Shown piece by piece: positions 14,813 through 30,720 of a stretch of 32,000 nt of DNA. The stretch spans positions 1,350,001-1,382,000 of the forward strand of contig NC_017262.1 of NCBI RefSeq assembly GCF_000175255.2, written 5' to 3'. The notes beneath the pieces were generated by a model. That model searched no databases, was not told where the DNA came from, and worked only from the letters and a program-made list of their open reading frames with translations. This stretch comes from Zymomonas mobilis subsp. mobilis ATCC 10988. GTDB taxonomy: Bacteria > Pseudomonadota > Alphaproteobacteria > Sphingomonadales > Sphingomonadaceae. Position numbers and translations under genes: made by a program. Within the stretch, counting starts at the first letter, position 1. The number at the start of each line of letters is the position of its first letter.

Positions 14813-15994
14813 ATGACAGAACAGGCCTTGGGTAAGGACAAAAGACAGGAAAAACAGGATATGCCTTTGGCTTTGTATATCCATTGGCCATTCTGCCTTG
14901 CAAAATGTCCTTATTGCGATTTTAACAGCCATGTTCGGCCAGATATTGATGCCGCCCTTTGGCAGGATGCTTTACTTTCTGACATGGCGCATGAAGCTGC
15001 CCTCACCCAAGGCCGCCGGCTCAGTTCGATCTTTTTCGGGGGTGGCACGCCTTCTCTGATGCCTCCCGAAACGGTAGCCGCGCTGATTGATGCCGCCACC
15101 CGCTATTGGCAACCGACCCCCGATATCGAAATCACACTTGAAGCCAACCCCTCTTCAGTTGAAGCTGACCGTTTCCAATCCTTGGCTTTGGCAGGGGTTA
15201 ATCGTCTATCTCTCGGTATTCAGGCCTTAGACGATACCAGCCTGCATTTTCTAGGAAGAATCCATAATGTCCAAGAAGCCTTATCCGCGCTCGATATCGC
15301 CCAGAAAAACTTCTCCCGTGTCAGCTTTGATCTGATCTATGGCCGCCCGAACCAATCCCTCAAAGATTGGGAAGAAGAATTAAAACAGGCCTTGGCTTTT
15401 GGCAGTGACCATCTGTCCCTTTACCAATTAACGATTGAAGAAGGCACCCGCTTTCACAGTCTGGTAAGACAAGGCCAATTTACCCCGATGGATGGCGACA
15501 AAGCCGCCGATCTTTTCGATCTCACCCGCGATATGACCAAAGCGGCAGGCATCCCCGCTTATGAAATATCCAACCATGCCCGCAAAAATTCGGAAAGCCG
15601 CCATAATCTCACCTATTGGCGTTATGGCGATTATATCGGCATCGGGGCAGGCGCCCATGGCAGAAGACTGAATAACGTCACTATCCGCCATAAAAAACCA
15701 GAAAACTGGCTGTCTGCAGTTCAAAAACAGCAACAGGGTATTCAGGAAGAAACCCCGCTATCACCCAAAGATCAGGCCATAGAAGCCGTCTTGATGGGCT
15801 TGCGCTTAACTGAAGGCATCGATCCCAAAAATATCCAAAAACGCACAGGCTTGGATATCTCCGAATTTCTCGATATCGCCGCTATTCAATATTACAGCGA
15901 CCAAGGATTACTCACCTTCAATAACGGCTTATTACGCATTACCGAGCAAGGCGCTCTATTAACAGATGCCTTAATAAGAGAAATTAGTTTATGA
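14813..15994 (+). CDS. hemW: Radical SAM family heme chaperone HemW (HemN-like, oxygen-independent coproporphyrinogen oxidase-like)
   Basis: Radical-SAM CxxxCxxC motif (CLAKCPYCDF), GGGTPS, 393 aa. An alternative start is at 14861 (MPLALYIHWPFC). Confidence 0.85.
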   Translation: MTEQALGKDKRQEKQDMPLALYIHWPFCLAKCPYCDFNSHVRPDIDAALWQDALLSDMAHEAALTQGRRLSSIFFGGGTPSLMPPETVAALIDAATRYWQPTPDIEITLEANPSSVEADRFQSLALAGVNRLSLGIQALDDTSLHFLGRIHNVQEALSALDIAQKNFSRVSFDLIYGRPNQSLKDWEEELKQALAFGSDHLSLYQLTIEEGTRFHSLVRQGQFTPMDGDKAADLFDLTRDMTKAAGIPAYEISNHARKNSESRHNLTYWRYGDYIGIGAGAHGRRLNNVTIRHKKPENWLSAVQKQQQGIQEETPLSPKDQAIEAVLMGLRLTEGIDPKNIQKRTGLDISEFLDIAAIQYYSDQGLLTFNNGLLRITEQGALLTDALIREISL

Positions 15995-16197
15995 TTTTAT
16001 TGATAATGATATTTCCTATTACTTTCATTATTCGAATGGTGATGATTAATATAATGGCTAACCATGATTATTTTACTTTCTTTACTACATTAATTAGCAC
16101 TACCGTTGGTGTAGGGGCAACTTATTTTGCTAACTATCTTTTTGAAAACGAAAAGCGAAAAAAATATTACAAGAAAAACTTAATAGAAAATCAATAA
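15991..16197 (+). CDS. Hypothetical small membrane protein (two predicted TM helices); probably the N-terminal part of a frameshift-split ~249-aa gene
   Basis: 68-aa ORF in roughly 20% GC DNA. Its ATG overlaps the hemW stop (ATGA). Hydrophobic segments: MILLIMIFPITFIIRMVMINIM and FFTTLISTTVGVGATYFANYLF. Confidence 0.55.
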   Translation: MILLIMIFPITFIIRMVMINIMANHDYFTFFTTLISTTVGVGATYFANYLFENEKRKKYYKKNLIENQ

Positions 16198-16403
16198 AAA
16201 TTATAAGAAATTTAAATATATATTATAATATTTCATTAGAACTATATAATAAATTTAATCAAAAAATTTACCAAAATCCACAAATAATACCTAAACGTAT
16301 TTTTTCTTTAATAAAAGATATAGAATTTTCTTTTAAAGAAAGCGATATATCAGATAATGAAATATATGATATTTTTCATATTACAGATTTTTGTACATCA
16401 AAT

Positions 16404-16739
16404 ATGTATGAAAATTTATTTCTTCAAATAAATAATAATTTTAATTATATTAAAAAATATATTAATAAACACGATTTATTTTGGAGAGATGCTGATCTGG
16501 ATTATTTTTCTCAAAATGAAAATGAATTTCATGAATTTATTCAAAAAAGAGAACCTTTAATATTAGAAACATTGGGATTAGCAGGAAAAATATCTCTTTT
16601 ATCTAAAGAAAATATGGAAGGCATAAAAAAATTCTTATCTGTTTTCGTCAACGGCGATAATTTCTATGCAAAAGATATAGAAATAAAATTACCAAAAATT
16701 GATGGCGGTTTCGAAACAATAAAAAGAACCGTCCCTTAA
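16404..16739 (+). CDS. Hypothetical protein, no recognisable family; the frame is open from 16146 with no start codon, so it is probably the C-terminal part of the split gene
   Basis: 111 aa counted from the first ATG. I translated the same frame upstream and found 86 consecutive sense codons (16146-16403) with no ATG, GTG, TTG or stop. That is very unlikely by chance in such AT-rich DNA. Confidence 0.55.
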   Translation: MYENLFLQINNNFNYIKKYINKHDLFWRDADLDYFSQNENEFHEFIQKREPLILETLGLAGKISLLSKENMEGIKKFLSVFVNGDNFYAKDIEIKLPKIDGGFETIKRTVP

Positions 16740-16745
16740 TAAAAC

Positions 16746-17456
16746 TCACATAATCGGAAAATGATTAAGCCGCCTCCGCCTTTCTTTCCAATCGGGCAAA
16801 AAGCGATCCATAAAGGCATAAAAACGGCGATTATGGGAAGCCTCCAACAGATGCACCATCTCATGCACCACAACATATTCAAGACATTCAGGCGGTTTTT
16901 TCACCAATTCGCTATTTAACCAGATACGCCCTGCCCTGACGTTACAACTACCCCACAGGGTTTTCATGGTCTTAACCCGCCAAACAGCGACCTCCACGCC
17001 GATAATTTTTTCCCAACGCGCCGCTAAATCGGGGATAGCCTGCTCTAATTGCGCTCGAAACCACAAGGCTAACCATTTCTCTTTCTTCTCGGCAGAAGGC
17101 GGAATCGCCGTATGCATTTGCAATCGAGAGGGTGACAGCGGCAGAATTTTCGATTGCAACGAACCTGCCACTATTTCCAAATGATATCTCTCACCCCATA
17201 ACCAATAGGCTTCTTCACCGCGATCTTGGGCTTTTATCTCGATTGCTTTTTGGTAGCGTTTTTGACGTTTTTCTATCCATGCCATGCGGCCAGCGAGAAT
17301 ATGACGAAGCGTCGCCTCTTTCATATTTCGGGGTGCCGAAACCACAACCGAACCATCATCAGGGGACAACCGGATATAAAGATTTTTAATCTCTTTCCGC
17401 AGGATATGGATCACAACCCCTGCAAGAATAATATCGCTCGCCGCTTCTTTTGCCAT
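16746..17456 (-). CDS. YgjP-like metal-dependent hydrolase (DUF45 / M48-type HExxH protein)
   Basis: 236 aa with the WGSC motif and the zinc-binding HEMVHLLEASH motif characteristic of DUF45. Confidence 0.75.
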   Translation of the reverse strand: MAKEAASDIILAGVVIHILRKEIKNLYIRLSPDDGSVVVSAPRNMKEATLRHILAGRMAWIEKRQKRYQKAIEIKAQDRGEEAYWLWGERYHLEIVAGSLQSKILPLSPSRLQMHTAIPPSAEKKEKWLALWFRAQLEQAIPDLAARWEKIIGVEVAVWRVKTMKTLWGSCNVRAGRIWLNSELVKKPPECLEYVVVHEMVHLLEASHNRRFYAFMDRFLPDWKERRRRLNHFPIM

Positions 17457-27947: not shown

Positions 27948-30317
27948 TCAGAATTGATAAGAAGTCTGGAGATAATAAAATCCGCCATTCACCCCGATCT
28001 GGCTGGCAGCCCCGTCATATTTGCCGGAACCATAATAGCCATTGGCGGCGGGAATACGGGTGGTATGGGCATTGAAAAGATTATTGGCGCCGATAGCGAC
28101 CCGTAATTTTTCAATAGGACGATATCCAATTTCTAAATTGGTAATCCAACGCGGATGATTATGAATGCGGTTAAAATCAGTCATCGAATAGGCATTCGGG
28201 CCCTGATACCAGGTCATTTCATCGGTAGTCTGGCCAAAACGCTGCTCATGCAGGCTGACATCCCATTTTTTGGAAAAAGATTCCCATCTTCCGCCAAAAG
28301 TAATCCGATTTTTCGGGGTGCTACTGGTCAAATAAGCCCGTGTCTGGGCATTCAAGGCTGACATCCCATTCGCCAGTTGGTTGACATGCCGAATGGTGGT
28401 CGCATTGATATTCAAGGCAATATCCCAGTCAACAATACCGAAATTCTCAAAACGACTATGGTAACTGGCGGTAAAATCCAAACCGCGGGTGCGGGTGCTG
28501 GCACCATTGGTAAAGAACCATGCCGATATATTTTGAGCCTCAAGCGTCGAAGCTACGGTCACTCCTTGTGCGTTCAAAGCCGCCAAAGCCGCCTCACCGG
28601 ATATACCGGGGCCACTGACAATCCGGTTACGGATAGCGATCTGATAGCTATCAAGGGTAAAATGAAGATTTTTCAAAGGTGAATAGACCAGTCCGGCCGT
28701 AATATTGGTAGCCTTTTCCGGTTTTAATGGCACCGCCCCCAATAGCTTGGCCGCAGCCGAATTAGCGCCCAAAGTGCCGCTGGCACTATCAGGCCCCACT
28801 GACAAGGTGCTAAAATATTCATTGGCAAGGCTTGGCGCTCTTGTCCCACTGCTAAAGGTCGCCCGAAGCGCGAATTGATCGGTAAAGTCATATCGGGTCG
28901 AAGCTTTACCATTCAGCGTGCTACCGAAATCGCTATAATATTCATAGCGTCCGGCTAAATCGACCTGCCAACGCTTTGTCAAATGGGCAGAAAGATCAAG
29001 ATAACCACTATAGACATTACGGGAATGAGATCCGGCAACAGCGGGTATAATACCGGTTCGGGCTTGGGTTCCGCCATATAAATAGGAGGCCGGATCACCC
29101 GCTCCGGTTTTATAGGTTTCATAACGATGGGCGAAACCGGCCGCCACGGTCAGCGGGCTATAGATCATGGGCAAAGCCAATTCTTTGCTCAGATCAAGGG
29201 TATTATTCAGTTGAGTGGTCGAATAATTATTCAGATGCACCGATAAAGGGGTCGAACCCGTTGCGGCATAAAGGCCAAGATTGGCGGTTTTATCGAGGTC
29301 ATTCCGAATGAAATTGCCGCCATAGGTGGAATTGACATCCCAATGGATTCCCAAGGCATTATCACCACGCAACCCAAGAGAAGCCGAAAAGTCGTTTTCA
29401 GACAATTTTTGTATCGGCATAAAGCCATCAGGATAGGCTTCGGGAAAACGATCAGCCGTTCTATAGACCTGATTAACCTCACTATTGCGATGCGAATAGC
29501 TATCAGTCGTATAAATTTCGATGCCATTTCCAAAATCATAACCGGCATTGATCGCCAGATTATAGCGGGTCGCCATCGGATCACCGACAACTTTCAAACT
29601 ATGGCGCTGGGTTCGGCTATCGATACCATCACGGCTGGTATGATTTTGATGACGAAAATCGAAGGCAACATCAAAGAAACCGGAATGACCAATTTTGAAT
29701 CCCTTATTAAAACCGGCCTGTCCGACCAATCCATCTCCGGCATAGGTCTGTCCGATCTGACTTCTGGCACTGCCACCATGATTGTCAGATTTCAAAATGA
29801 TATTGACGACTCCGGCAATGGCATCGGAACCATATTGGGCAGCGGCGCCATCTTTCAAAACCTCAATATGGTCAATCAATTCGGGGGCAATCAAATCAAG
29901 ATCGGTTGGCGTAGCCGCATCGGCAAAACCATCAATATAGAGGAAAGAGCTATTATGACGGCGCTTGCCATTGACCAAAACCAAGGTCTGATTTGGATTA
30001 AGACCCCGTAAACTGACAAAATTGGTAGGTGCGGCAACAAATTGCCCGACAGCCGGTTGCGTAATAGAAGGCACTAATTGCGCCAAAGCCGAGGTAACAT
30101 TCGTCTGGCCGGTTTCCAGCAATTCTCGATTATTCAAAACTTCAATAGGGGAAAGACTATCCCTTATTTTCTTATGCGTTTCACGGGTGCCGGTAACGAT
30201 AATGGCATCATTATTAGAAGTATTACTAACAGTATCAGTCGCGGCTTCTACCGGATATTGTAAGAAAAACCATGAAAAGGAAAAAAGAAAACCTCCTTTT
30301 TTAATAAAATTTTTCAT
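27948..30317 (-). CDS. TonB-dependent outer-membrane receptor
   Basis: 789 aa with a signal peptide, a TonB-box-like DAIIVTG, a plug domain, and a beta-barrel with a C-terminal aromatic residue (…YYLQTSYQF). Confidence 0.9.
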   Translation of the reverse strand: MKNFIKKGGFLFSFSWFFLQYPVEAATDTVSNTSNNDAIIVTGTRETHKKIRDSLSPIEVLNNRELLETGQTNVTSALAQLVPSITQPAVGQFVAAPTNFVSLRGLNPNQTLVLVNGKRRHNSSFLYIDGFADAATPTDLDLIAPELIDHIEVLKDGAAAQYGSDAIAGVVNIILKSDNHGGSARSQIGQTYAGDGLVGQAGFNKGFKIGHSGFFDVAFDFRHQNHTSRDGIDSRTQRHSLKVVGDPMATRYNLAINAGYDFGNGIEIYTTDSYSHRNSEVNQVYRTADRFPEAYPDGFMPIQKLSENDFSASLGLRGDNALGIHWDVNSTYGGNFIRNDLDKTANLGLYAATGSTPLSVHLNNYSTTQLNNTLDLSKELALPMIYSPLTVAAGFAHRYETYKTGAGDPASYLYGGTQARTGIIPAVAGSHSRNVYSGYLDLSAHLTKRWQVDLAGRYEYYSDFGSTLNGKASTRYDFTDQFALRATFSSGTRAPSLANEYFSTLSVGPDSASGTLGANSAAAKLLGAVPLKPEKATNITAGLVYSPLKNLHFTLDSYQIAIRNRIVSGPGISGEAALAALNAQGVTVASTLEAQNISAWFFTNGASTRTRGLDFTASYHSRFENFGIVDWDIALNINATTIRHVNQLANGMSALNAQTRAYLTSSTPKNRITFGGRWESFSKKWDVSLHEQRFGQTTDEMTWYQGPNAYSMTDFNRIHNHPRWITNLEIGYRPIEKLRVAIGANNLFNAHTTRIPAANGYYGSGKYDGAASQIGVNGGFYYLQTSYQF

Positions 30318-30339
30318 ACGCCCCCTCTTTAATTTTTAG

Positions 30340-30720
30340 ATAATTTTGCTTCTCCTCGATAATTTTTAATATAATTATTTTATTTAATGATAAAATTTAA
30401 ATATAATTTATGGGTATAAAGTATTTATTTATTGGATATAAATTATTAAATAATGTTATATTATATTTCATCTTTTGAAAAATAAAGAGATCGACTATAC
30501 AATAAAGGATAAAAAAGGATGCCATCACCCTAAATTAAAAATAAAAAACTAATTAAAATTAAAATAATTAAACAAATAAAAAAATAAAACAAAATCTATT
30601 TTACAGTAATTTTAAAAATAAAAAATTAACTTTATTTGGAATTAAGAGTTTTTTTGAAAAAGACCTATTCAATAACCTAAAATTTTCAGATTATTTTCAT
30701 CTAAAAAATATACCGCCGTT
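30340..30720. other. Extremely AT-rich tract: candidate DNA-unwinding element of oriC and/or promoter region of the TonB-dependent receptor
   Basis: ~380 bp made almost entirely of A/T. It lies directly beside the DnaA-box cluster. It contains a 14-mer direct repeat, ttaaaaataaaaaa, at 30535-30548 and 30612-30625. Confidence 0.5.

Follow-up and report, generated by a model that had tools for sequence, protein, structure and literature searches.

A gene of extreme base composition lies between hemW and the convergent gene of a YgjP-like (DUF45) metallopeptidase in the chromosome of Zymomonas mobilis subsp. mobilis ATCC 10988, within the stretch of 32,000 nucleotides (contig NC_017262.1, positions 1,350,001 to 1,382,000 of the forward strand) that is called the window here and whose first letter is position 1 of all coordinates below. 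With high confidence, this gene is a genus-wide, position-locked and multi-allelic component of Zymomonas genomes, whose alleles are exchanged between lineages, whose protein has a constant-variable-constant organization, whose distant relatives are borne on plasmids and whose copy in this strain is broken. Its product may be a membrane-tethered cytoplasmic sensor or effector in conflict with phages or mobile elements, a functional reading to which somewhat less than even confidence is attached.

Distribution of the family and diversity of its alleles

The family was traced by protein searches of 5.8 billion clustered proteins and by a profile search of 1.84 billion representatives, and in both the relatives came mostly from Zymomonas, whose members gave profile E-values of 1e-20 to 1e-79. 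A homologue occupies the slot at 11 of 11 Zymomonas loci examined, in the order hemW, variable gene and, convergently, the YgjP-like gene, followed by cysJ where the contig reaches that far; the Zymomonas loci are L001 (Zymomonas sp. W26), L002 (strain AN0101), L083-L086, L087-L090, L092, L099, L100, and L101. The spacing from hemW to the YgjP-like gene in these loci is always 707-802 bp, with 22-32% G+C, and no empty hemW/YgjP-like junction was found among them. In 78 of 78 other Sphingomonadales loci, neither a YgjP-like gene nor cysJ nor the variable gene lies within 6 kb of hemW, and the hemW-YgjP adjacency is not present in any of these loci outside Zymomonas. The preliminary description, made from the letters of the window, had seen the segment as an insert whose presence should vary among strains; comparison of the junction, with the slot filled at every Zymomonas locus examined, does not support that view.

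The gene exists in at least seven or eight allele classes, which, together with the plasmid-borne relatives described below, also removes the earlier designation of the product as an orphan. Where the flanks match those of the window at 97% identity or more, the loci retrieved carry four very different classes, namely that of the window, P0003/P0004, P0005, and P0011 with P0010, and P0008, which was named Z. mobilis at its source and whose locus was not retrieved, is probably a fifth class among close Z. mobilis. Classes of the deeper lineages are represented by P0001, P0006, and P0009. The window allele was seen in the ATCC 10988 lineage alone and is the most AT-rich of the alleles measured, while the intact alleles form open reading frames (ORFs) of 207-244 amino acids (aa) in sequence of 22-32% G+C. 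Pattern searches of Joint Genome Institute (JGI) metagenomes, with a DNA pattern and with protein patterns, returned no further relatives, and one profile match, P0013 (a 1081-aa repeat protein, E = 5e-5), was discarded as spurious, since it matches via short Ala/Glu-rich repeats only.

Composition and coding signal of the segment

The AT-rich segment between the convergent core genes spans 15995-16745 (751 bp) and has 22.0% G+C. The window as a whole has 47.6%, hemW 48.6%, and the YgjP-like gene 47.4%, and the segment is the stretch of lowest G+C among all 750-bp windows (mean 0.476, standard deviation 0.056), about 4.6 standard deviations below the mean. The third-position G+C of its gene is 12%, against 48-52% (around 49%) in the neighbouring genes, and F, Y, M, I, N, and K make up 49% of the residues of the conceptual product, against 23-26% in the neighbours. 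On the left, the TGA of hemW (15992-15994) is overlapped by an ATG at 15991; on the right, the stop codon TAA at 16737-16739 lies 6 nt short of the end of the convergent YgjP-like ORF at 16746. Thus, the foreign composition with its sharp edges at the core genes, both borders, and the skewed amino-acid usage are all as the preliminary description had given them. The longest stop-free run in the segment measures 197 codons, whereas shuffled sequences gave 55 +/- 12 codons with a maximum of 128, and 0 of 5000 shuffles reached 197; the open frame is therefore far longer than chance allows. A scan for promoters and terminators gave counts that were not above those of shuffles, a scan of the whole window against Rfam returned no family, and neither an integrase nor a tRNA nor direct-repeat borders were seen at the hemW/YgjP-like slot.

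Replacement of alleles between near-identical flanks

When the window is aligned with the Z. mobilis locus L088, nucleotide identity is 97-100% over 6.7 kb, except from the stop codon of hemW (15992) to about 16612. In windows of 60 alignment columns, identity falls at 15990, from 0.97 to 0.35-0.62, and is again 0.87-1.0 from 16613 onwards, delimiting a replaced, hypervariable cassette at 15992-16612 on the forward strand, in which identity to other Z. mobilis is about 50%. By the Nei-Gojobori method, the synonymous (dS) and nonsynonymous (dN) divergence between the window and L088 are 0.88 and 0.47 in the variable gene, compared with 0.08-0.10 and 0.01 in the flanks. This roughly tenfold excess of dS cannot come from selection on the protein and thus indicates old alleles joined to near-identical flanks by recombination; rapid evolution in situ was rejected because dS, and not dN alone, is about 10 times the flank value. 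The same contrast in identity and dS supplies a strong phylogenetic signal of exchange, of the kind that had been anticipated for the segment.

Moreover, the variable proteins of L092 (P0005) and L083 (P0001) share 63% aa identity, with a dS of 1.14, between flanks whose synonymous sites are saturated and whose proteins are 77-78% identical, and this similarity of the gene despite saturated flanks shows that this allele class is common to deep lineages. Within one class (L001 against L088), dN/dS is 0.35, against 0.08-0.15 in the flanks, so that the gene is constrained, and more weakly than its neighbours. Together, the alignments show alleles that are old and have been swapped between lineages by homologous recombination, with sharp breakpoints, one at the end of hemW and one within the conserved C-terminal coding region.

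Architecture of the protein

Over its full length, the conceptual protein of the window can be aligned with the family (alignment A4, which contains the Zymomonas alleles and the Acetobacteraceae plasmid relatives), and all share a design in which a hydrophobic segment, some 24 residues long, is followed by a Lys/Arg/Glu-rich linker, a helical domain, an F[VI]NG.NF motif, and a terminal beta-hairpin. The N-terminal hydrophobic segment (FTFFTTLISTTVGVGATYFANYLF; 16072-16143, forward strand), which is present in every family member, is a predicted membrane anchor and is followed by the Lys/Arg/Glu-rich linker. It precedes a middle module that is hypervariable (16218-16562, forward strand; residues 56-170 in the numbering of the conceptual 228-aa product) and a conserved C-terminal module (16563-16739, forward strand) that contains the last helix of the bundle, the F[VI]NGDNFY motif, the beta-hairpin (IEIKLPKIDGGFETIKRTVP), and the stop codon. 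Because the Lys/Arg/Glu-rich linker follows the anchor, the C-terminal domain would be cytoplasmic according to the positive-inside rule. Two transmembrane helices had been predicted previously, the first of which derives from 21 upstream codons that are unique to the window allele; since these codons are absent from all other alleles, one hydrophobic anchor seems more likely than two, and the model with two helices was set aside.

Identity between classes follows this modular organization, reaching up to 74% in the N-terminal part (residues 1-55) and 41-71% in the C-terminal part (171-228), whereas the middle (56-170) shows 13-25% in most class pairs, with insertions and deletions, and up to 43-50% for P0005 compared with P0001 or P0003/P0004. 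P0008 is a mosaic: its N-terminal part is 74% identical to that of P0005, its middle 18%. The C-terminal helix and beta-hairpin are common to all allele classes (…DGGFETIKRTVP; NGDNFY…KLPKIDGGFETIKRTVP), and in L083 the amino acids of this part are kept by different codons, the proportion of synonymous differences (pS) being about equal to that of the flanks. This preservation of the peptide with different codons indicates constraint on the protein rather than on the DNA, and the possibility that the 3' end is kept as a DNA or RNA element (e.g., a terminator of the convergent gene) was rejected because its synonymous sites diverge approximately like the flanks while the peptide is maintained.

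AlphaFold2 (AF2) models from shallow alignments were obtained for the C-terminal part encoded in the window, with a predicted local distance difference test (pLDDT) of 79.8 and a predicted template-modelling score (pTM) of 0.77, and for full-length P0001, with 80.7 and 0.72, respectively. Both comprise three long helices, some short ones, and a C-terminal hairpin, with a long N-terminal helix before the helical domain.

The broken copy in the ATCC 10988 lineage

The start codon used across the family is the ATG at 16054, which opens the MA[DN] sequence aligned in all alleles, while the ATG at 15991 is allele-specific and adds 21 codons. In other alleles, a purine-rich AAGAG or AAGG lies 7-11 nt upstream of the start and could be a ribosome-binding site, judged by eye and unscored. 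From ATG 16054, the first part of the gene runs for 47 codons to the TAA at 16195-16197 (16054-16197, forward strand), and the same TAA ends the frame from ATG 15991 after 68 codons. The second part (16146-16739, forward strand), with 197 codons and a stop codon, is offset by -1 (equivalent to +2) and specifies the helical domain together with the conserved C-terminus. The frame breaks at a tract of seven adenines (A7; 16158-16164, forward strand), as the reading frames and the identical assemblies show, and one extra A (A8) in this tract would join the two parts into a 228-aa protein (249 aa from ATG 15991), which reads …FENEKRKKILQEK… (EKRKKILQEK) across the break. The 249-aa product proposed earlier is therefore not encoded as such, since its frame stops after 68 codons and the remainder, which is read in a different frame, can be joined to it only with the additional A.

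The 751-bp segment is identical in a contig of strain uvs51 (NZ_VFOI01000001.1; L081) and in the Logan assembly of SRR9435042 (L082), and the 111-aa ORF that results is also annotated in ATCC 10988 (AEH63017.1) and in two further JGI assemblies. Strain uvs51 belongs to the 'Drainas' group of ATCC 10988 derivatives (PMC8088579). The same A7 in the assemblies of this lineage indicates that the frameshift is real, but confined to a single lineage; the window allele is split by a shortfall of one nucleotide in the linker tract, so that translation from the normal start can yield no more than the membrane anchor. Four alleles are broken in all, that of the window at A7, that of L001 at a tract of nine adenines (A9), that of P0027/P0026 in the equivalent linker, and that of L099 at a site that is not at any long homopolymer, while the homologues P0001-P0005, P0008, P0009, P0012, P0014, P0015, and P0028 are single ORFs. 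Recurrent inactivation of family alleles fits this pattern best.

Plasmid-borne relatives

Four distant relatives, P0012, P0014, P0015, and P0028, have 264-273 aa and are 18-21% identical to the window protein. Alignment of the family with P0012 by hhalign gave a probability of 96.6% and an E-value of 7e-10 over 193 columns, and the plasmid relatives are thus true homologues. One locus (L091) combines the relative with a tyrosine recombinase and MazEF, in a MazEF region that resembles a Gluconobacter plasmid. In L093-L095, the relative is accompanied by a resolvase, ParA and ribbon-helix-helix (RHH) genes, and an MvaI/BcnI restriction-modification system on a backbone similar to Acetobacter plasmids, and in L096-L098 PaaA2-ParE follows it directly, and the replicon encodes a MobA/MobL relaxase. 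The relatives have 27-29% G+C within contigs of 45-51%, and low G+C on every replicon examined therefore seems to be a trait of the family and not the mark of one transfer event. The association with defence genes suggested in the preliminary description holds in part, namely for these plasmid relatives beside MazEF, ParE/PaaA2, and MvaI/BcnI, and fails on the chromosome, where the neighbours are housekeeping genes.

Several other genes of these replicons can be described. A conserved ORF of 51 aa, which matches no family, is found some 190 bp upstream of P0015 (L093 559-714, L094 407-562, L095 344-499), and at its position L097 and L098 have a 108-aa ORF with a weak, sub-threshold match to the helix-turn-helix (HTH) family HTH_17; these upstream ORFs could possibly be a regulator or partner. 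The MvaI/BcnI-type endonuclease and cytosine-5 methyltransferase pair of L093 (3820-6459) shares 80% nucleotide identity with an equivalent pair on a plasmid of Phaeobacter gallaeciensis, which suggests wide transfer of this restriction-modification module. In addition, L097 (4170-4703) and L098 (1656-2189) encode a PTS_2-RNA protein (KptA/Tpt1-type RNA 2'-phosphotransferase) between two unannotated ORFs.

Possible function and alternative explanations

In the functional reading introduced above, a single protein anchored at the membrane would present a sensor or effector to the cytoplasm and be engaged in conflict with mobile elements, phages among them. Specificity for a rapidly evolving partner would reside in the variable middle module, and the constant N- and C-terminal parts would supply anchoring and output. 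The gene could be costly or dispensable and hence often inactivated, and it would be off in this strain. The hypervariable middle, the recurrent inactivation, and the plasmid relatives beside MazEF, ParE-PaaA2, and MvaI-BcnI lend modest circumstantial support to a role in defence or exclusion. Highly divergent versions of one gene at a single locus are a typical feature of genes in conflict with phages or plasmids. A more far-reaching proposal, put forward only tentatively and considered rather unlikely, is that the gene belongs to a family, not described before, in which one protein alone acts in conflicts with phages or plasmids through a swappable, hypervariable helical specificity module of about 115 residues between constant parts. 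Its alleles would circulate on Acetobacteraceae plasmids, be exchanged in Zymomonas by homologous recombination at a dedicated, minimal hemW/ygjP 'docking slot', and frequently be turned on and off by inactivation in the A-rich linker.

Several results weigh against a conflict function. As the preliminary description had anticipated, the protein could not be assigned to any family; scans of the conceptual protein and 12 family members against Pfam, PADLOC, PHROGs, and NCBIfam gave no significant match, a profile search of PDB sequences found nothing better than E = 0.19, and Foldseek comparison of the two AF2 models with the PDB and BFVD retrieved only generic helical bundles (best E = 0.05). 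With PADLOC, the window protein had no match and one of the 12 family members had an insignificant one (PDC-M09B, E = 0.0095). Sub-threshold matches to RepB_C, DUF7138, VTT, and holin families were taken as noise, and a match to the phage holin phrog_1350 (E = 0.047) was rejected because it appears solely with the allele-specific 21-residue extension and has no phage context. The invariant residues show no recognisable catalytic motif, and the anchor is marginal in some alleles, with a best 19-residue Kyte-Doolittle mean of 1.2 in P0001 and P0005, compared with 1.8-2.3 in P0009, P0012, and P0015. Neither IMG/VR nor, by tblastn, the INPHARED phages and PLSDB plasmids contained relatives, and the plasmid contexts are only four, three of them mutually related. 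The chromosomal neighbours (rph, rdgB, hemW, the YgjP-like gene, and cysJ) are housekeeping genes that do not form a defence island, and 4 of approximately 10 alleles are broken, as would also be seen in a decaying gene of low function. Finally, ZMO0011, the presumed counterpart in strain ZM4, is unmentioned in the literature searched, in which expression or phenotype data were not found.

The resemblance to a decaying gene leads to the alternative that deserves most attention, although it is also unlikely, that is, a decaying remnant of a plasmid-origin gene that was captured once in the Zymomonas ancestor and then, under weak constraint, was passively shuffled and repeatedly pseudogenised, with a pseudogene in this strain. 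Decay would account for the four broken alleles, including that of L099 away from long homopolymers, for a dN/dS of 0.35-0.57, above that of the flanks, and for the lack of a catalytic motif and of any family match. However, it does not readily explain why ORFs of 207-244 aa stay intact in stop-prone sequence of such low G+C across lineages whose flanks are synonymously saturated, why the sequence of the C-terminal peptide persists although its codons differ, why dN/dS remains below 1, and why the slot is never empty. Less probable still is a role in competition among plasmids or mobile elements rather than against phages, such as exclusion, incompatibility, a maintenance accessory, or immunity to an unlinked toxin, in which the variable module would match variable partners. 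All relatives outside Zymomonas reside on small plasmid-like contigs beside partition, resolution, mobilisation, and toxin-antitoxin genes and the phage collections lack relatives, as such a role would predict, but the Zymomonas gene is chromosomal and placed among housekeeping genes, neither a toxin nor a partner gene recurs beside it (some of the plasmids, but not all, have a predicted HTH gene in front of it), and no similarity to known exclusion or immunity families was detected.

The break itself could be regulatory, in which case the A7 tract would serve programmed -1 ribosomal or transcriptional slippage, or an A7/A8 phase switch, and the full-length protein would appear in small amounts or in a fraction of the cells. 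The sequence cgA-AAA-AAA at 16158-16164 is indeed an in-phase slippery heptamer of the X-XXY-YYZ type, from which a -1 slip enters exactly the conserved downstream frame, and two other alleles are broken at or beside runs of A (the A9 of L001 and the equivalent linker in P0027). Nevertheless, a stimulatory RNA structure was not found downstream (minimum free energy, MFE, -1.3 kcal/mol; z = +1.3; folding is equal or better in 183 of 200 shuffles), every other intact allele is read without a change of frame, both contigs of the lineage have A7, ATCC 10988 and two further assemblies carry the annotation of the 111-aa ORF, and the L099 allele is broken elsewhere, so that regulation through the tract appears improbable. 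The explanation that the preliminary description favoured, a strain-specific lateral insertion of an orphan gene into an empty hemW/DUF45 junction, agrees with the extreme composition and with an allele known from the ATCC 10988 lineage only, and it is refuted by the other Zymomonas loci. A homologue fills the slot, with 707-802 bp between the core genes, in every Zymomonas lineage examined, no empty junction was found, and mobility genes or repeats do not flank the gene, which leaves such an insertion with almost no probability.

Comparison with known systems and significance

The closest functional analogues of the putative sensor or effector may be AbiP and AbiC, the lactococcal abortive infection (Abi) proteins that are encoded by single genes and anchored in the membrane. 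All family members share with them a predicted organization with an N-terminal hydrophobic segment followed by a soluble domain, and the family also resembles them in its occurrence on plasmids of fermentation bacteria; abi genes, moreover, have a G+C content below that of their hosts. However, no sequence similarity to AbiP or AbiC was detected by PADLOC profiles, which presumably include an AbiC model, and the Zymomonas gene is chromosomal, position-locked, and multi-allelic. In addition, the soluble domain of AbiC and AbiP has been described as an extra-membrane 'ecto-domain' (review, PMC13064643), in contrast to the putatively cytoplasmic domain of the Zymomonas family.

The slot and the domain arrangement resemble those of other variable loci. 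Among these are hotspots of defence or variable genes between core genes and the genes of constant-variable-constant proteins such as type I HsdS subunits, flagellin, and proteins with CapRel-type variable sensor domains. As in such systems, the Zymomonas gene has a fixed place between conserved genes and alleles exchanged by homologous recombination in the flanks, and, as in HsdS, flagellin, and CapRel, its protein has conserved termini and a hypervariable middle that plausibly sets specificity. Unlike a hotspot, the slot is invariably occupied by a single homologous gene of some 0.7 kb instead of alternative unrelated systems; the Zymomonas protein is unrelated to HsdS, flagellin, and CapRel, and no partner genes accompany it. 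Genes with programmed -1 frameshifting, such as dnaX and the IS1/IS911-type elements (A-AAA-AAN), share the in-phase A-AAA-AAA and a -1 frame that encodes the conserved rest of the product, but the window gene lacks a downstream stimulator and its homologues are not frameshifted. AT-rich islands under xenogeneic silencing are similar in composition (22% compared with 48% G+C, 12% at third positions) and in their sharp edges, whereas the Zymomonas slot is without integrase, tRNA, or direct-repeat borders and its gene, already present at this position in the ancestor of the genus, has nevertheless not drifted in G+C towards the host.

The family thus combines the lack of any Pfam, PDB, or defence-database counterpart with confident structure predictions. 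Its population pattern is unusually clean, since a cassette of approximately 620 bp between housekeeping genes exists in at least four, and probably five or more, mutually unrecognisable versions in strains whose flanking genes are 97-98% identical, and the hemW/YgjP-like locus could serve as a sensitive typing marker for Zymomonas lineages, whatever the function. Z. mobilis is an industrial ethanologen and, if this were a true conflict gene, barriers to phages and plasmids would bear on the robustness of fermentation and on genetic tractability. It would then also offer a compact natural system in which specificity, located in the middle module, is separate from the constant parts and suited to module swaps, and through it the mobile gene pools of Zymomonas and the acetic-acid bacteria, two groups that share sugar-rich niches, would be connected.

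Flanking genes and other observations

The left conserved flank, which acts as a recombination anchor, is hemW (14813-15994, forward strand), encoding a radical-SAM haem chaperone recognized by Pfam Radical_SAM and HemN_C and by NCBIfam TIGR00539 (311 bits; cut-off 205), and it is 97-98% identical in nucleotide sequence to that of other Z. mobilis up to its stop codon. Its start is called variably, giving 393 aa in the window, L088, L089, and L101, 389-390 aa in L085, L100, and L002, and 375-377 aa in L083, L087, L090, L092, and L099, and the first 16 or so codons (MTEQALGKDKRQEKQD) may be untranslated. The right conserved flank is the YgjP-like metallopeptidase gene (16746-17456, reverse strand; Pfam PF01863, E = 1.4e-61), with 97% nucleotide identity to other Z. 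mobilis. Genes of DUF45/COG1451 are often linked to type I restriction-modification loci, and no such link was seen at this locus.

In strain ZM4, the counterparts of the variable gene and the YgjP-like gene should be ZMO0011 and ZMO0010, respectively, according to gene numbering (ZMO0009 is cysJ and ZMO0013 is rdgB). Deletion of ZMO0010 slightly reduced growth and increased the titre of D-lactate in a CRISPRi and knockout study (PMC10883783).

A second sharply AT-rich patch occupies positions 30300-30700 of the window, where 200-bp windows have 15-17% G+C. It contains no internal ORF of at least 50 aa, apart from ORF ends over its first 40 bp or so, has no Rfam match, and lies immediately upstream of a 789-aa ORF (27948-30317, reverse strand) whose product, judged by eye, looks like a TonB-dependent outer-membrane receptor.

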